Below the pieces are notes generated by a model. That model saw nothing but the letters and a program-made list of their open reading frames with translations, had not been told where the DNA came from and ran no database searches. A stretch of DNA of 64,000 bases from assembly GCF_058153355.1 (NCBI RefSeq), contig NZ_CM177019.1; one strand, given 5' to 3'. The position numbers and the translations under genes were made by a program. Position 1 is the first letter of the stretch; each line of letters starts with the position of its first letter. Of the stretch, positions 4,064 through 63,939 are shown in pieces.

Positions 4064-4668
4064 TCACTGATGCCGTTTACGCAGGTTCTCAATCACCGTC
4101 GTTAAATCCAGATCCTGATCCTGCAACAACACCAGCAGGTGATACATCAAGTCAGATGCCTCGTTGGTCAGCTCAAAGCGGTCATGTACCGTTGCTGCCA
4201 GCGCAGTTTCCACGCCTTCTTCGCCCACTTTCTGCGCGATGCGTTTGGTGCCGCTGGCATACAGTTTGGCGGTATAGGAGGTTTCCGGGTCGGCAGTTTT
4301 GCGCTCGGCGAGTAGTTGTTCCAGTTGATACAGGAACAGCCACTGGTGAGCGGTGTTGCCGAAGCAGCTGCTGGTGCCTTTGTGGCAGGTTGGCCCGATG
4401 GGATTCGCCAGCACCAGTAACGTGTCGTTGTCGCAGTCCGGCGCAATACTCACCACATTGAGGAAATTGCCCGACGTTTCGCCTTTGGTCCACAGTCGCT
4501 GTTTAGTGCGGGAGAAAAAGGTGACTTTGCCGCTTTCGATGGTTTTGTCTAAGGCTTCCGGGCTCATATAGCCCAGCATTAGCACTTCGCCAGATACCGC
4601 GTGTTGCACAATCACCGGCATCAGTCCGTCGGTTTTTTCCCAGTCCAGTTCGCGACGTTGTTGTTCTG

Positions 4669-4675
<7 letters not shown>
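4064..4675 (-). CDS. hisI: Bifunctional phosphoribosyl-AMP cyclohydrolase / phosphoribosyl-ATP pyrophosphatase
   Basis: 203-aa ORF, last gene of his operon; overlaps hisF. Confidence 0.95.
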
Positions 4676-6753
<2,078 letters not shown>

Positions 6754-6754
<1 letters not shown>

Positions 6755-7820
6755 TACAGCACTCCTTTCGACGAGGGCAGGGTATCGCCTTCCACGCGGA
6801 TGGCCTGGCGCAGGGTGCGACCAAAAGCTTTGAACAGGCTCTCTACACGGTGGTGATCGTTTTTACCTTTGGTTTTCAGGTGCAGGGTCACGCCCATGGT
6901 GTATGAGAGCGAACGGAAGAAGTGCTCGATCATTTCGGTGCTGAGATCGCCCACGCGCTGGTAGGTAAACTCGGCTTTATATTCCAGGTGCGGGCGACCA
7001 GAGATATCCAGCGCGCAGCGGGCAAGGCATTCGTCCATCGGCAGTACAAAACCAAAGCGGCAAATACCGCGTTTGTCGCCAAGAGCAATTTTTAATGCTT
7101 CGCCCAGCGCCAGGCCGGTATCTTCGACGGTGTGGTGATCGTCGATATAGAGGTCGCCTTTGACGTTGATTTCCATCCGGAAACCGCCGTGGGTGGCGAT
7201 CTGATCCAGCATGTGATCAAAGAAGCCAACGCCGGTGTTAATCTTGCTGCCACCTTCGCGATCCAGCCACACCTGGACGTCAATCTGCGTCTCTTTGGTG
7301 TTGCGCACTACATGGGCGTAACGGTCTCGTTTAGTGAGTTGCTCACCAATCATCGGCCAGTTCAGGGCTTCGCGGTCGTAGCGTAAACCATTAATGCCCA
7401 TGTTTTCCGCCAGTTGAATGTCGGTCGCGCGATCGCCAATCACATAACTGTTAGCGCGATCCATCGCTTGCTCAGCCAGATAACGCTCCACCAGTTTTAC
7501 TTTCGGCTTACGGCAGTCGCACTCATCGGCGGGCAGGTGCGGACAAATCAGCACTTCATCAAACTGCACGCCTTGCGAGGTGAAGATCTGCATCATCAGG
7601 TTGTGCGGGCCATCAAAATCCGCCTGCGGGAAACTTTGTGTTCCCAGACCATCCTGATTAGTGATCATCACCAGTTTGTAGCCCGCTTTTTGCAGCTTCA
7701 GCAGCTGAGGGATCACGCCCGGTTCAAAGGCGAGTTTGTCAAAACGGTCCACCTGAAAATCACTCGGCGGTTCGCTAATCAGGGTTCCATCGCGATCGAT
7801 AAAAAGATACTTCTGACTCA

Positions 7821-7821
<1 letters not shown>
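6754..7821 (-). CDS. hisB: Bifunctional histidinol-phosphatase / imidazoleglycerol-phosphate dehydratase
   Basis: ORF 6754-7824; start trimmed to [13 protein letters not shown]. Confidence 0.95.
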
Positions 7822-10192
<2,371 letters not shown>

Positions 10193-10197
10193 GGCGA

Positions 10198-11097
10198 TCA
10201 CTCCATCATCTTCTCAATCGGCAGGACCAGGATTGAACTGGCACCCAGCGCTTTCAGTTTTTCCATCGTTTCCCAGAACAGGGTTTCGCTACTGACCATG
10301 TGCATCGCTACGCGTTGTTGGTCACCCGCCAGCGGCAGAATGGTTGGGCGTTCGGCACCTGGCAGCAGGGCGATGACTTCATCCAGACGTTCGGTCGGTG
10401 CGTGCATCATGATGTATTTTGATTCGCGCGCCTGGATCACACCCTGAATACGGGTCAGCAGTTTGTCGATCAGTTGCTGTTTGGATTCTTCCATTTCGCC
10501 ATCGCGCTGGATCAGGCAGGCTTTCGAGCGGTAGATAACTTCGACTTCGCGCAGGCCGTTAGCTTCCAGCGTGGCACCGGTGGAAACCAGATCGCAAATC
10601 GCATCCGCCAGTCCGGCACGCGGCGCAACTTCGACAGAGCCGTTCAGTAAGCAGGATTTAAAAGAGATACCTTTCTGGTCGAGATAACGCTTGAGCAGGT
10701 GAGGATAAGAGGTGGCGATACGTTTACCATTTAAGGAGAGCGGACCGTCCCAGGCTTCATCAACCGGCGTTGCCAGCGAAAGGCGGCAGCCGCCGAAATC
10801 CAGACGACGCAAGGTAAAGTAGCGCGGATCTTCACCCTGGGCGCGGCGGTTAAGCAGCTCTTCTTCCAGCACGTTTTCGCCGATAATCCCAAGGTCTACC
10901 ACGCCGTCCATTACCAGACCGGGAATGTCATCGTCACGCACGCGCAGAATATCAATCGGCATGTTTTCTGCCATCGCGATCAGGCGCTGGGTGTGAAGAT
11001 TGATTTTAATGCCACAGCGCGCCAGTAATTCGCGTGAGTCATCACTTAAACGGCCGGATTTCTGCATAGCTATGCGTAAACGAGTGTTGTCTGTCAT
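10198..11097 (-). CDS. hisG: ATP phosphoribosyltransferase
   Basis: ORF 10198-11136; start trimmed to [17 protein letters not shown]. Confidence 0.95.
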
Positions 11098-11144
11098 TTT
11101 CTTATTCCTCTTTAAACCTGTCTGAACCGTTAACAACCGCGCAA

Positions 11145-11181
11145 TAAAAAAGCCCCCGGAAGGTGATCTTCCGGGGGCTTT
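11145..11181 (-). promoter_or_regulatory. his operon attenuator terminator
   Basis: Minus-strand hairpin AGCCCCCGGAAGATCACCTTCCGGGGGCT followed by U-run, between hisL and hisG. Confidence 0.85.
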
Positions 11182-11242
11182 CTCATGCGTTCATGCACCA
11201 CTGGAAGATCTGAATGTCTTCCAGCACACATCGCCTGAAAGA

Positions 11243-11293
11243 CTAGTCAGTATGATGGTGATGATGGTGGTGTTTAAATTGAACGCGTGTCAT
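11243..11293 (-). CDS. hisL: his operon leader peptide with seven consecutive His codons
   Basis: Minus-strand ORF atgacacgcgttcaatttaaa + (cac/cat)x7 + actgactag = MTRVQFKHHHHHHHTD. Confidence 0.92.
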   Translation of the reverse strand: MTRVQFKHHHHHHHTD

Positions 11294-13960: not shown

Positions 13961-14226
13961 AGAAAAATTATTATGACAAGCCTCTCATTCTCTTGTCATT
14001 TCCCCCCCATTTAGGCACAATGCGCCGCTGTCAAAAAATGACTAAAAACCGACGTTTAATTAGCGTCGGTTATTTTTTGCTTCAAACCAATCATTCATAC
14101 CAAGAGGCCGGGCTTCGTACCGGATAGATATTTACTAAAAATCGACAGTTGTTGTCGCTGAGGAATCCAAAAAAATGGGGCAATTTTTTGCTTACGCGAC
14201 GGTTATCACCGTAAAGGAGAATGACC

Positions 14227-22599: not shown

Positions 22600-22770
22600 G
22601 CCGGAAAAGCAGGCACCTGCCGTCTGAACGGTATCGATCCGGAAGCGTATCTGCGCCATATTCTGAGCATACTGCCGGAATGGCCCTCCAACCGTGTTGA
22701 CGAACTCCTGCCATGGAACGTAGTTCTCACCAATAAATAAGCGTCAATACGGTGCTCCGTTGACGCTGAT
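22600..22770 (+). mobile_element. IS66-family transposase 3' remnant and terminal repeat tip
   Basis: Encodes ...GIDPEAYLRHILSILPEWPSNRVDELLPWNVVLTNK*, matching the C-terminus of the intact IS66-family TnpC at 41197-42768; end sequence resembles the IS66 terminal repeat. Confidence 0.7.
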
Positions 22771-24280
22771 ATGACTTTCCGTGTCAAACCGGAATCTCTA
22801 ATTTTGACGATTTTCTTTTTAGGTTTAATTCCCTGAGGGCGACGTAGCAGTAAATCCGACGGTGAATCACGCTGATATTCGCGGGTTGGATACCGCATTA
22901 CAGAGGTCCGTCATATGAGCCTGCCACTTTCTTACGTCGCGAATCAGCTTTGTTCCGCCGTCGCCAAGCGCTAACGTGGGTTACTCTTGTACCGGGCTAC
23001 GTCGCCTTCAGGGAACTGGTTATTCTCATTTTTTATTTGTGACATTGTGGTTGTTGTGCGACAGACATTGCTATTCGGCCCATATCCCAGATAAAACCCG
23101 CCAGCTCACGTGCAACAGCAACAATTGTAATATTGACATTCTTTCCTTTGGCCTGAAGTTTTCGATACCTCTTACAAAGCCTGAGTTGAGCATCCCATGC
23201 TCTGTCAATGACGGGGCGGGGTAAATTTTCCTGCCTTTTTTGTATTGCCGGACTGATGCGTGCCGGATGACGGTAACTCCACGCTGCCTCGACCAATAGC
23301 TTTCTGGCATAGCTGTTTCCGGCTTTGGTAATGCTGCCCTGATGTCTGCTTCCACCCGATGAATATTCTGATGGCGTGATACCAAACCATGACATCAGTT
23401 GTCGTGGATGTTCAAAACGGGTCAGATCACCCAGTTCAGAAATTAATCCAACCGCAGTAATAAACTGAATCCCTCGCATGGCTTGCAGCGCCTCTACTAC
23501 CGGATACAGCCTCCATTCGGTAACGGCCTCCTTCAGGGCGGATTCCAGCCGTTCACATTGTGCCTGCCGGTCTTCTATTGTACGACGGTGTTCGTCAAAA
23601 GCTAATTGTCGCCAGGGACTTTCGAATGAGTATTTGCTGAGCCAGCGTCGGTGTGCAGGGCCCCAATCTGCTCGCCCGACATAATGGACCCCATGAACCA
23701 GAAGAAACGATTTCAGACGTTGCCTTGCATGCCGTAAATCATCGCGGGCAGATGCCCATGCCCGGGCCAAATCCCGGAATGCCTCATCTTCAATGCCGGG
23801 TACGTAGACAGCAGAAAGATCTCCTGCACGCAGTGAACGCACAAGTCTGATGGCATCACGGCGATCGGTTTTAACCCGCTCCCCCGGTTTTTTCGGGATA
23901 AGTGAGGGGGCGCAGACCATGCAGTCAAAACCGGATTTCACCAGCCGACGATAAAGTCCATAACCACAGGGCCCCGCTTCATAAACGATACTGACCTGCG
24001 ATGACTTTGACCTGAGACGTTTACAAAGATTCTGAATATCAGTAGGTGATGTGCCAATTTTACCCATCAGTTCAACAGGTTCTGAATTGATAGCATAAGC
24101 GACAGTAATCGATTCTTTGTGAACATCTAACCCGACGTACAATGTGTTATTGTTGTTCATGCTGGCCTCCGTGGTGGAAATACCGGGGTGTAGCAACAGC
24201 TCACCCATGCGGCTCTGACAACGATGTTAACCCGCGTTAAATATCCCACGTTGGCCAGCATCTGTCTCACGGAAAGTCAT
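22771..24280 (-). mobile_element. IS110-family insertion sequence, copy 1 (about 1,510 bp, 13-bp imperfect terminal inverted repeats ATGACTTTCCGTG)
   Basis: Identical to copy 2 at 54561-56070 in inverted orientation; ends atgactttccgtg (22771) and cacggaaagtcat (24268-24280). Confidence 0.85.
23033..24160 (-). CDS. IS110-family DEDD transposase/recombinase
   Basis: ORF 23033-24208; start set at MNNNNTLYVGLDVHK; N-terminal RuvC-like DEDD region (GLDVHK, YEAGPCGY, DRRDA) and C-terminal IS110 domain (ITKAGNSYARKLL). Confidence 0.88.
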   Translation of the reverse strand: MNNNNTLYVGLDVHKESITVAYAINSEPVELMGKIGTSPTDIQNLCKRLRSKSSQVSIVYEAGPCGYGLYRRLVKSGFDCMVCAPSLIPKKPGERVKTDRRDAIRLVRSLRAGDLSAVYVPGIEDEAFRDLARAWASARDDLRHARQRLKSFLLVHGVHYVGRADWGPAHRRWLSKYSFESPWRQLAFDEHRRTIEDRQAQCERLESALKEAVTEWRLYPVVEALQAMRGIQFITAVGLISELGDLTRFEHPRQLMSWFGITPSEYSSGGSRHQGSITKAGNSYARKLLVEAAWSYRHPARISPAIQKRQENLPRPVIDRAWDAQLRLCKRYRKLQAKGKNVNITIVAVARELAGFIWDMGRIAMSVAQQPQCHK

Positions 24281-24398
24281 ACTGCCTTACCTTTTCTCAG
24301 GCTATTTTTGCTTTTTTTTGCTTTTCCCCGCCACTTTATGGTGATTATCACATCAATATACATCGATAGATATTAACGTAACTGAAGTGAGGTGAAGC

Positions 24399-52264: not shown

Positions 52265-52279
52265 ATGGAGAGAAGCACA

Positions 52280-52756
52280 ATGCAACAACTTTCCTTTCTG
52301 CCCGGAGAGATGACGCCCGGCGAGCGCAGCCTCATTCAACGGGCCCTGAAAACCCTGGACCGCCATCTTCATGAACCCGGCGTGGCCTTCACCTCCACCC
52401 GTGCAGCACGGGAATGGCTGATTCTGAACATGGCGGGACTGGAGCGTGAAGAATTCCGGGTGCTGTATCTGAACAACCAGAATCAGCTGATTGCCGGTGA
52501 AACCCTCTTCACCGGCACCATCAACCGCACGGAAGTCCATCCCCGGGAAGTGATTAAACGCGCCCTGTACCACAATGCCGCTGCCGTGGTACTGGCACAC
52601 AATCACCCGTCCGGTGAAGTCACACCCAGTAAGGCAGACCGGCTTATCACCGAACGTCTGGTACAGGCACTGGGCCTGGTGGATATCCGGGTGCCGGACC
52701 ATCTGATAGTCGGTGGCAACCAGGTTTTCTCCTTTGCCGAACATGGTCTGCTTTAA
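52280..52756 (+). CDS. yeeS: RadC-like JAB-domain protein
   Basis: Start MQQLSFLPGEM; JAMM-like motif HNHPSGEVTPSKAD. Confidence 0.85.
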   Translation: MQQLSFLPGEMTPGERSLIQRALKTLDRHLHEPGVAFTSTRAAREWLILNMAGLEREEFRVLYLNNQNQLIAGETLFTGTINRTEVHPREVIKRALYHNAAAVVLAHNHPSGEVTPSKADRLITERLVQALGLVDIRVPDHLIVGGNQVFSFAEHGLL

Positions 52757-52818: not shown

Positions 52819-53040
52819 ATGAAAATTATCACCCGTGGTGAAGCCATGCGTATTCACCAACAACATCCGACATCCCGTCTTTTTCCGTTCTGTACCGGTA
52901 AATACCGCTGGCACGGCAGTGCTGAAGCGTATACCGGTCGTGAAGTGCAGGATATTCCCGGTGTGCTGGCCGTGTTTGCTGAACGCCGTAAGGACAGTTT
53001 TGGTCCGTATGTCCGGCTGATGAGCGTCACCCTGAACTGA
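52819..53040 (+). CDS. yeeT: DUF987 protein YeeT
   Basis: 73-aa ORF MKIITRGEAMRIHQQHP...; conserved position before cbeA. Confidence 0.85.
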   Translation: MKIITRGEAMRIHQQHPTSRLFPFCTGKYRWHGSAEAYTGREVQDIPGVLAVFAERRKDSFGPYVRLMSVTLN

Positions 53041-53113: not shown

Positions 53114-53482
53114 GTGTCAGACACACTCCCCGGGACAACACTTCCCGACGACAATCACGACCGCCCCTGGTGGGGGCTGCCCTGCACCGTGACGCCCTGT
53201 TTCGGGGCACGTCTGGTGCAGGAGGGTAACCGGTTGCATTACCTTGCCGACCGCGCCGGTATCAGAGGCCTGTTCAGCGATGCAGATGCGTACCACCTGG
53301 ACCAGGCCTTTCCGCTGCTGATGAAACAACTGGAACTCATGCTCACCAGCGGTGAACTGAATCCCCGCCATCAGCATACCGTCACGCTGTATGCAAAAGG
53401 GCTGACCTGCAAAGCCGATACCCTCAGCAGTTGTGGTTACGTTTATCTGGCTGTTTATCCGACGCCCGAAATGAAAAATTAA
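53114..53482 (+). CDS. cbeA: Type IV antitoxin CbeA (YeeU)
   Basis: 122-aa ORF matching CbeA/YeeU. Confidence 0.88.
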   Translation: MSDTLPGTTLPDDNHDRPWWGLPCTVTPCFGARLVQEGNRLHYLADRAGIRGLFSDADAYHLDQAFPLLMKQLELMLTSGELNPRHQHTVTLYAKGLTCKADTLSSCGYVYLAVYPTPEMKN

Positions 53483-53570: not shown

Positions 53571-53944
53571 ATGAAAACATTACCTGTATTACCCGGGCAG
53601 GCGGCCAGTTCTCGCCCGTCTCCTGTTGAAATCTGGCAGATACTGCTGTCCCGACTGCTGGACCAGCACTATGGCCTCACACTGAATGACACACCTTTTG
53701 CCGATGAACGTGTGATTGAGCAGCATATTGAGGCAGGCATTTCACTGTGTGATGCGGTGAACTTTCTCGTGGAAAAATACGCGCTGGTGCTACCGACCAG
53801 CCGGGATTCAGCGCCTGTACCCGCTCTCAGTTAATAAACAGCATCGATATCCTCCGGGCTCGCAGGGCGACCGGCCTGATGACCCGCGACAATTACAGAA
53901 CGGTAAATAACATTACCCTGGGTAAGTATCCGGAGGCGAAATGA
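53571..53944 (+). pseudogene. cbtA: Type IV toxin CbtA (YeeV), frameshifted
   Basis: ORF stops at 53834 after 87 aa; N-terminus matches CbtA and the C-terminal third continues in another frame to TGA at 53942-53944. Confidence 0.7.
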
Positions 53945-54135
53945 TGACACTGGAAGCCGACAGCGTTAACGTACAGGCGCTGGATATGGGGCACATTGTC
54001 GTTGACATTGATGGTGTTAATATCACTGAACTGATTAATAAGGCCGCTGAAAACGGTTATTCACTCCGCGTGGTGGATGACCGTGACTCTACCGAAACAC
54101 CGGCAACTTATGCCAGCCCTCACCAGTTGCTGTAA
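53941..54135 (+). CDS. yeeW: CP4-44-type island protein YeeW
   Basis: 64-aa ORF MMTLEADSVNVQALDMGHIVVDIDG; overlaps cbtA stop. Confidence 0.8.
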   Translation: MMTLEADSVNVQALDMGHIVVDIDGVNITELINKAAENGYSLRVVDDRDSTETPATYASPHQLL

Positions 54136-54490
54136 GACAATGCAGTGATGCAGGGTATAGTGCCATTAACCACAGAAACAGCACTGTTGTCCTGTATTAA
54201 GCAGGCAAGAGAAGATGTCCTTACCCTGCGCCATCTGCAGCTTCTGCACCAGAACCGGTGAATCTCACTCAACAGGCTTCATTTCCCCTGACGCCAGCCT
54301 GAATACAGCTGGCGTTTTCATTTATAAACAGAAAGGAAAACCGATAATAATGGAATGGACGCCCCGACCATGAAGCAACGGTAGGATATTACTGATAAAC
54401 CTTCCAGTGGAGGTGCGTTATGGCCGTTTTAACGATTAGCATTGACCTGACAAAAAATGAATTCCAAATCCACGGTCTGGGTAGGAACAG

Positions 54491-54552
54491 AAAAATCTAA
54501 GCTCAGAAAACGGATTAAAGTAAAAATCTAAGCTCAGAAAACGGATTAAAGT
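54491..54552 (+). repeat. Perfect 31-bp tandem duplication (2 copies) abutting the left end of IS110-family copy 2
   Basis: aaaaatctaagctcagaaaacggattaaagt at 54491-54521 and again at 54522-54552. Confidence 0.9.
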
Positions 54553-54560
54553 AAGGCAGT

Positions 54561-56070
54561 ATGACTTTCCGTGAGACAGATGCTGGCCAACGTGGGATAT
54601 TTAACGCGGGTTAACATCGTTGTCAGAGCCGCATGGGTGAGCTGTTGCTACACCCCGGTATTTCCACCACGGAGGCCAGCATGAACAACAATAACACATT
54701 GTACGTCGGGTTAGATGTTCACAAAGAATCGATTACTGTCGCTTATGCTATCAATTCAGAACCTGTTGAACTGATGGGTAAAATTGGCACATCACCTACT
54801 GATATTCAGAATCTTTGTAAACGTCTCAGGTCAAAGTCATCGCAGGTCAGTATCGTTTATGAAGCGGGGCCCTGTGGTTATGGACTTTATCGTCGGCTGG
54901 TGAAATCCGGTTTTGACTGCATGGTCTGCGCCCCCTCACTTATCCCGAAAAAACCGGGGGAGCGGGTTAAAACCGATCGCCGTGATGCCATCAGACTTGT
55001 GCGTTCACTGCGTGCAGGAGATCTTTCTGCTGTCTACGTACCCGGCATTGAAGATGAGGCATTCCGGGATTTGGCCCGGGCATGGGCATCTGCCCGCGAT
55101 GATTTACGGCATGCAAGGCAACGTCTGAAATCGTTTCTTCTGGTTCATGGGGTCCATTATGTCGGGCGAGCAGATTGGGGCCCTGCACACCGACGCTGGC
55201 TCAGCAAATACTCATTCGAAAGTCCCTGGCGACAATTAGCTTTTGACGAACACCGTCGTACAATAGAAGACCGGCAGGCACAATGTGAACGGCTGGAATC
55301 CGCCCTGAAGGAGGCCGTTACCGAATGGAGGCTGTATCCGGTAGTAGAGGCGCTGCAAGCCATGCGAGGGATTCAGTTTATTACTGCGGTTGGATTAATT
55401 TCTGAACTGGGTGATCTGACCCGTTTTGAACATCCACGACAACTGATGTCATGGTTTGGTATCACGCCATCAGAATATTCATCGGGTGGAAGCAGACATC
55501 AGGGCAGCATTACCAAAGCCGGAAACAGCTATGCCAGAAAGCTATTGGTCGAGGCAGCGTGGAGTTACCGTCATCCGGCACGCATCAGTCCGGCAATACA
55601 AAAAAGGCAGGAAAATTTACCCCGCCCCGTCATTGACAGAGCATGGGATGCTCAACTCAGGCTTTGTAAGAGGTATCGAAAACTTCAGGCCAAAGGAAAG
55701 AATGTCAATATTACAATTGTTGCTGTTGCACGTGAGCTGGCGGGTTTTATCTGGGATATGGGCCGAATAGCAATGTCTGTCGCACAACAACCACAATGTC
55801 ACAAATAAAAAATGAGAATAACCAGTTCCCTGAAGGCGACGTAGCCCGGTACAAGAGTAACCCACGTTAGCGCTTGGCGACGGCGGAACAAAGCTGATTC
55901 GCGACGTAAGAAAGTGGCAGGCTCATATGACGGACCTCTGTAATGCGGTATCCAACCCGCGAATATCAGCGTGATTCACCGTCGGATTTACTGCTACGTC
56001 GCCCTCAGGGAATTAAACCTAAAAAGAAAATCGTCAAAATTAGAGATTCCGGTTTGACACGGAAAGTCAT
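54561..56070 (+). mobile_element. IS110-family insertion sequence, copy 2 (inverted relative to copy 1)
   Basis: Ends atgactttccgtg (54561) and cacggaaagtcat (to 56070); internal sequence identical to copy 1 over all inspected ORFs. Confidence 0.85.
54681..55808 (+). CDS. IS110-family DEDD transposase/recombinase
   Basis: Same 375-aa protein as copy 1; GGAGG RBS at 54671. Confidence 0.88.
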   Translation: MNNNNTLYVGLDVHKESITVAYAINSEPVELMGKIGTSPTDIQNLCKRLRSKSSQVSIVYEAGPCGYGLYRRLVKSGFDCMVCAPSLIPKKPGERVKTDRRDAIRLVRSLRAGDLSAVYVPGIEDEAFRDLARAWASARDDLRHARQRLKSFLLVHGVHYVGRADWGPAHRRWLSKYSFESPWRQLAFDEHRRTIEDRQAQCERLESALKEAVTEWRLYPVVEALQAMRGIQFITAVGLISELGDLTRFEHPRQLMSWFGITPSEYSSGGSRHQGSITKAGNSYARKLLVEAAWSYRHPARISPAIQKRQENLPRPVIDRAWDAQLRLCKRYRKLQAKGKNVNITIVAVARELAGFIWDMGRIAMSVAQQPQCHK

Positions 56071-56740
56071 ATCAGCGTTAATGGAGAATCATATTGATGC
56101 TTATTTATTGGTGAGAACTACGTTCCATGGCAGGAGTTCATCAATACGGTTGGAAGGTTATTCCGGCAGTACGCTCAGGATATGGCGCAGATACGCTTCC
56201 GGATCAATGTCGTTCAGAAGGCAAGTGCCGATAAGCCCATACAACAGTGCACTGCGCTCGCCGCCGAAGAACATAAAGTTTTTATTTCCGAGACAGATGG
56301 CACAAAGGGCTTTTTCCGCGGCATTATGTCTGCCTCCGCCTGACCGTCAACACTGTAATAACAGAGTGCGCCCCACTGATTCAGTACACAGCTGAACCAT
56401 TCTCCCAGTCTGGATTTTTGGATAGCGTGGCATTTTTCTCCACCATGCATGCAGTGAGTCCAGTAACAGTTTGCTCTTCTTCTGCCTGACCACAAGATGT
56501 GCTGGACTGGTAAACGATGGGGATACCTGCTTACGCGAGAGCAATAAGTGGCTGGCCACAATTCTCGGTACAAAACTCTGCTGAATAGCAGCGATTTTCC
56601 CAGCGTGGTGCGTCGTTTGCATTTTACTGGTTCTAAGTTAACAATTATCTGTTCACTAATGACTACTCTAAAAACTTGTATCAGGACTATCACTTATTTA
56701 AGTGATATTGGTTGTCTGGAGATTCAGGGGGCCAGTCTAT
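56071..56740 (-). mobile_element. Composite IS remnant: IS66-like tnpC 3' fragment plus IS2-like terminal fragment
   Basis: 56071-56400 encodes an IS66 TnpC C-terminal tail on the minus strand, about 85-90% identical to the remnant at 22600-22770; 56650-56740 is an IS2-type terminal repeat (GGGGGCCAGTCTA). Confidence 0.65.
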
Positions 56741-61454: not shown

Positions 61455-61530
61455 TGGCTCCTCTGACTGGACTCGAACCAGTGACATACGGATTAACAGT
61501 CCGCCGTTCTACCGACTGAACTACAGAGGA
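61455..61530 (-). tRNA. asnV: tRNA-Asn (GTT anticodon)
   Basis: Minus-strand 76-nt sequence TCCTCTGTAGTTCAGTCGGTAGAACGGCGGACTGTTAATCCGTATGTCACTGGTTCGAGTCCAGTCAGAGGAGCCA. Confidence 0.95.
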
Positions 61531-63863: not shown

Positions 63864-63939
63864 TGGCTCCTCTGACTGGACTCGAACCAGTGACATACGG
63901 ATTAACAGTCCGCCGTTCTACCGACTGAACTACAGAGGA
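63864..63939 (-). tRNA. asnU: tRNA-Asn (GTT anticodon), second copy
   Basis: Same 76-nt minus-strand sequence as 61455-61530. Confidence 0.95.

Follow-up and report, generated by a model that had tools for sequence, protein, structure and literature searches.

The cbeA-cbtA locus and the island around it

The stretch of DNA that we analysed (64,000 nucleotides, hereafter the window) carried a cbeA-cbtA gene pair followed by yeeW, all of them transcribed rightward together with two upstream island genes. The features of this block are listed here with their window coordinates:

52265-52756, positive strand: yeeS (RadC-like JAB, Pfam match), upstream, co-directional island gene
52819-53040, positive strand: yeeT (DUF987, Pfam match), upstream, co-directional island gene
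53114-53482, positive strand: cbeA (yeeU), type IV antitoxin gene, intact, 122 aa, GTG start
53571-53944, positive strand: cbtA (yeeV) pseudogene, entire former coding region, 374 bp as against 375
53571-53789, positive strand: cbtA codons 1-73 in the native frame (tblastn, 100% against K-12 CbtA)
between 53790 and 53791, positive strand: position of the lost base, G of CGT (Arg74), seen as a gap column in the alignment
53790-53834, positive strand: out-of-frame tail of the 87-aa product, 14 residues plus TAA (53832-53834), from translation
53792-53944, positive strand: cbtA codons 75-124 plus TGA, an untranslated remnant in the -1 frame relative to the start (tblastn, 100%)
53941-54135, positive strand: yeeW (DUF5983 N-terminal domain), intact (PF25638, 101.4 bits)

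The position of cbeA directly upstream of cbtA, on the same strand and inside the yeeS-yeeT-...-yeeW block, is that of a type IV toxin-antitoxin (TA) module, and the order and spacing of the two genes were as in K-12 and E. coli C. The first-pass annotation of this DNA had described cbeA as full length, and the profile search bore this out: the 122-aa product matched PF06154, the CbeA antitoxin family, with 178.5 bits over model positions 1-100 of 101. Over its whole length (residues 1-122) it could also be aligned with 2H28, the solved structure of YeeU, the only difference being G108 versus D108, and it is the same protein as WP_001285585.1, encoded in E. coli C and FDAARGOS_943. The difference at residue 108 corresponds to a nonsynonymous change relative to K-12 at position 53436 (codon 108, 53435-53437), which gives Gly here and Asp in K-12. 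E. coli C and FDAARGOS_943 have Gly108 as well, as does 2INW, a related protein of solved structure, and Asp108 may be a change on the K-12 side. A connection of G108 with the cbtA frameshift was ruled out, since FDAARGOS_943 has G108 together with an intact cbtA.

Downstream of cbtA, the aligned yeeW sequence was the same as in K-12 and E. coli C. Its ATG overlapped the former cbtA stop codon (ATGA), and the GGAGG located 6 nt upstream of this ATG was kept; the yeeW start now lies 107 nt past the end of cbtA translation. A programmed frameshift has been hypothesised in DUF5983 proteins encoded beside cbtA (2026, PMC13294457). Just after yeeW there was a 38-aa ORF (54145-54261), and at about the same relative position downstream of yeeW the PGAP annotation of E. 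coli C and FDAARGOS_943 shows a partial DUF957 gene whose N-terminus is missing.

The island was bracketed by two inverted copies of an IS110-family element (22612-24294 in the negative strand and 54548-56229 in the positive strand), 98.9% identical to each other over 1,683 bp. The encoded protein corresponded to the NCBIfam entry 'IS110 family RNA-guided transposase'; its orthologue bears the PGAP name ISSso6-like. In comparison with E. coli C and K-12, the approximately 31 kb between the IS copies, including cbeA-cbtA-yeeW, was inverted relative to both flanks, with breakpoints at 22767 and 54523, as if recombination between the two copies had turned it around. Of the complete E. coli genomes in the collection, none covered 80% or more of window positions 39001-64000. 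The element was inserted between ...ggattaaagta and agcgtcaacgg..., a site that is empty in E. coli C, and its ends (54555-54580 and 22770-22800) presented the subterminal inverted repeats ATGACTTTCCGTG and CACGGAAAGTCAT. Beyond the transposase ORF there were some 265 nt of non-coding DNA that could hold an IS1111-type guide RNA; an Rfam search of the IS returned no match at the gathering score. Directly left of the rightmost IS110 copy we found a 31-bp tandem duplication (aaaatctaagctcagaaaacggattaaagta) at 54493-54523 and 54524-54554. E. coli C has a single copy of this unit. Three genomes have the yeeW-IS junction in common with the window, and in these, as well as in the nine other listed matches, the matched span fell short of the query length by 31 bp. 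The duplication may be real and linked to the IS insertion, or it may be an assembly artefact.

In FDAARGOS_943, where the element occupies the same site and the segment is not inverted, the cbtA gene is undamaged. Therefore, the IS insertion and the frameshift are independent events, and the neighbouring IS110 insertion was discarded as the source of the lesion. Other features recognised in the window were a block of minus-strand ORFs (4064-11267) that is presumably the his operon and lies directly downstream of a His leader; the sRNA STnc240 at 14006-14080; and two tRNA-Asn genes (61455-61530 and 63864-63939) flanking the far end of the island.

A missing base in cbtA and its product

The window, K-12 MG1655 and E. 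coli C were aligned over 1,161 columns. Apart from the cbeA change at 53436, the window departed from K-12 by one gap in cbtA and by one substitution downstream of yeeW. The cbtA gap is the G of the CGT codon for Arg74, absent between 53790 (C) and 53791 (T). When this G was put back, 375 of 375 bases were identical to the cbtA genes of K-12 MG1655 and FDAARGOS_943; this is the comparison with intact alleles that had been proposed as a check. The frame shift reported by the first-pass annotation is thus real, although its location at 53795-53800 was some 5-10 bases too far downstream, and the end that it gave for the cbtA frame, 53834, was confirmed by translation: from 53571 the frame comprised 73 native and 14 out-of-frame residues, i.e., 87 aa, up to the TAA at 53832-53834. 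In a tblastn search, residues 1-73 and 75-124 of K-12 CbtA were each 100% identical to the window, in two different frames, and the C-terminal part could indeed be read in another frame, as had been claimed, from 53792 to the TGA at 53942-53944. An internal restart for this fragment was looked for, and its frame contained no ORF of 30 aa or more beginning with ATG, GTG or TTG. The one-base gap relative to the K-12 orthologue, the premature stop and the PGAP label 'frameshifted' together describe a frameshift pseudogene.

The deletion destroyed codon 74 and removed the last 51 residues of CbtA from the product, equivalent to 35% of the Pfam domain. Against the CbtA family profile (PF06755) the 87-aa product scored 128.7 bits, well above the cut-off of 25, over model positions 1-73 of 112 only, whereas the G-repaired gene covered positions 1-112; the complete domain is therefore not encoded in one frame. 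An alignment of 30 full-length members of the family, which share 69-96% identity with K-12 CbtA, showed that 19 of the 44 family-invariant columns lie within the lost residues 74-124, including R74-T75-D76 and the block S91-I-D-I-L-R-A-R98. The same alignment served for an AlphaFold2 model, whose confidence was moderate (the mean pLDDT was 68.9, with lower values for the C-terminal part). It predicted five helices: those at 18-34, 46-54 and 59-69, with the highest pLDDT, are retained, and those at 87-101 and 106-116 belong to the lost part. The PDB held no solved structure of a CbtA-family protein. From the extent of the loss we infer that the truncated 87-aa product is non-toxic or nearly so, and that the cbeA-cbtA module is toxin-null here.

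CbtA exerts its toxicity by binding FtsZ and MreB, and the affected cells are lemon-shaped. Interaction of CbtA with MreB requires R15 and that with FtsZ requires F65 (Heller et al., PMC5624674). Both residues fall within the retained residues 1-73, so that some residual activity is possible on sequence alone. The 87-aa product might then be a functional, attenuated mini-CbtA that binds FtsZ and/or MreB through its N-terminal helices and is kept for that purpose, either to inhibit division weakly or to compete with the full-length paralogous toxins. Besides R15 and F65, this idea draws on the three retained helices with the best pLDDT, on a start codon and upstream region that are as in K-12 and on the very high frequency of the allele (see below); C-terminal truncations of YeeV made by Tan et al. 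in 2011 reportedly still gave filamentation. However, the family's best-conserved block (R74-T75-D76, S91-R98 and G102-L103) is gone, and descent explains the high frequency equally well. Moreover, the variants of the 87-aa product found in carriers include D40N (418 contigs), V19I and L38M, all at family-invariant columns, a pattern that fits drift and not purifying selection. Four of the nine substitutions in these variants were at columns conserved at 90% or more, close to the neutral expectation of 45/73, the numbers being small. Such changes would indicate relaxed constraint and argue against a maintained function. On balance we regard a functional mini-CbtA as unlikely, and its more specific version, in which helices 1-3, R15, F65 and the novel 14-residue tail form a maintained FtsZ/MreB-binding attenuated inhibitor or decoy, as slightly more doubtful still. 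If true, such a mini-protein would explain the presence of one 'broken' allele in about one quarter of E. coli genomes, O157:H7 included.

Distribution and origin of the frameshifted allele

Toxin-null decay of an inherited module, the reading that we prefer, supposes that the missing G is genuine, and the first-pass annotation had offered an assembly indel as the alternative. We searched 5,426 complete E. coli genomes for exact copies of the 81-mer centred on the deletion and of the intact 82-mer with the G restored, and obtained 1,486 and 1,776 records, respectively, each count including at most about 45-50 partial matches. Among the carriers of the deletion were E. coli C and strains of O157:H7, O104:H4 and O145. 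The segment spanning cbeA to yeeW (1,022 bp, with the deletion) was 100% identical in at least 40 listed complete genomes, among them E. coli C, O104:H4 outbreak strains and O145; around the deletion, identity with E. coli C was 100% over 2,408 bp, again with the base missing. In E. coli C this same allele is annotated by PGAP as a cbtA pseudogene, 'frameshifted', and the exact 87-aa product occurred on at least 1,000 public contigs under YeeV or CbtA names. The sequence context, GGTGC[G]TACC, contains no homopolymer.

A sequencing or assembly error in the window, with the gene intact in the organism, is conceivable in that single-base indels are the commonest assembly error and that the near-identical island of FDAARGOS_943 carries an intact cbtA. 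Against it, the same base is missing at the same position in 1,486 complete-genome records from many laboratories and platforms, the identity with E. coli C extends across the deletion, the deleted G is outside any homopolymer run and the truncated product recurs on so many contigs. In view of the allele counts, the PGAP label and the sequence context, an error specific to the window is therefore very unlikely, and we reject it; the earlier suggestion of an assembly indel found no support. Least probable of all, to the point of being negligible, is a residual, low-level synthesis of full-length CbtA through programmed -1 ribosomal frameshifting or transcriptional slippage: the C-terminal frame is open from 53753, a -1 shift anywhere within 53753-53831 would join the two halves and a run of five A's (53772-53776; GAAAAAT, 53771-53777) lies in this zone, but five A's are too short for efficient slippage, none of the codon-phased heptamers in 53571-53834 was of the X XXY YYZ type, a shift at the A run would turn Y70-A71-L72-V73-R74 into IRAGA and so alter invariant or nearly invariant positions, and the deletion is a plain loss relative to the intact allele, which needs no frameshift device; programmed frameshifting was accordingly ruled out.

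There remains the genuine deletion. It is highly probable that the module in the window is the cbeA-cbtA type IV TA system of a CP4-44-like cryptic prophage island with a real, inherited one-base deletion in cbtA. By the counts given above, the frameshifted cbtA is evidently an old allele, inherited across whole lineages and present in about one quarter of complete E. coli genomes. The first-pass interpretation of a lost toxin and a retained antitoxin as TA-module decay holds, the gene being a frameshifted copy of a functional toxin that PGAP classes as a pseudogene; the decay is not private to this genome, since the same deletion is found in 1,486 complete-genome records.

Because the deletion is the same throughout and its haplotype hardly varies, a single origin is indicated, and we propose that the deletion would have arisen once, descent and recombination then accounting for its spread. 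In one variant (120 contigs) this frameshift tail was joined to another N-terminal haplotype, I24T plus S27T; both substitutions also occur in other cbtA alleles, and the combination suggests recombination. The island was 99.8% identical to K-12, as against 98.7% for the adjacent chromosomal segment from tmaR to dacD, and this lower divergence of the island is consistent with exchange of island DNA between lineages.

The frameshifted allele is already known, in the sense that public annotation records it as a pseudogene and as a truncated protein, and there is nothing mechanistically new in it; we found no paper that discusses the frameshifted form of this specific cbtA allele. Its importance goes little beyond correct annotation: the genome carries a common toxin-null cbtA and an orphan cbeA. 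An inventory of TA systems that lists the locus as an active type IV module would be wrong for carriers such as O157:H7, O104:H4 and E. coli C, and the complete E. coli genomes, almost evenly split between the intact gene and one identical null allele, would constitute a natural knockout set for CbtA.

The orphan antitoxin and related systems

CbeA does not bind the toxin but stabilises FtsZ and MreB polymers, and it also counters other FtsZ inhibitors (PMC5624674). Any one of the antitoxins CbeA, YafW and YfjZ neutralises the whole set of three paralogous toxins; deletion of the antitoxin genes is possible, and the operon lacks autoregulation (PMC5371832). Since CbeA acts on FtsZ and MreB and cross-neutralises, an orphan cbeA would be cheap and potentially useful beside paralogous toxins. 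We propose that the gene would have been kept on account of its low cost and of an action on the targets rather than on the toxin, and that the orphan CbeA could still buffer the paralogous toxins YkfI and YpjF and other division inhibitors. A tblastn search of the 64-kb window revealed no second cbtA/cbeA copy that the orphan antitoxin could serve. At megablast sensitivity, the median E. coli genome contained three such modules, and some carriers of the deletion, e.g., E. coli C, a single cbtA-like locus. Cross-protection cannot explain the retention of cbeA in E. coli C, because only that one locus was seen at this sensitivity; in such single-locus strains the gene may persist through too little time for its loss or through drift.

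The closest known system is the orthologous locus in the CP4-44 island of K-12, which shares with the window the gene order yeeS-yeeT-cbeA-cbtA-yeeW and likewise adjoins tmaR-yeeA-sbmC-dacD-sbcB. The two loci presented three differences across 1,161 aligned bases, and a chance match is therefore not an issue. The island cargo differs, being flu and yeeR in K-12 and a patatin-like phospholipase and a dynamin-family gene in both the window and E. coli C; the latter island also has the same gene order from yeeS to yeeW as the window. The cbtA genes of K-12 and the window are the same except for the one G that is absent from the window, so that the toxin frame is whole in the K-12 CbtA/CbeA pair and broken at codon 74 here, where only 73 native residues are encoded. 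The pairs YkfI/YafW (CP4-6) and YpjF/YfjZ (CP4-57) belong to the same two Pfam families and have the same mode of action as CbtA/CbeA, but they are separate loci that do not occur in the 64-kb window, YkfI and YpjF having 58-62% protein identity to CbtA (PMC5624674). Finally, the module in the window is the same in every respect as the cbtA allele that PGAP labels 'frameshifted' in E. coli C, O157:H7, O104:H4 and others; the difference from those carriers is that here it lies inside the approximately 31-kb segment inverted between two IS110-family copies.
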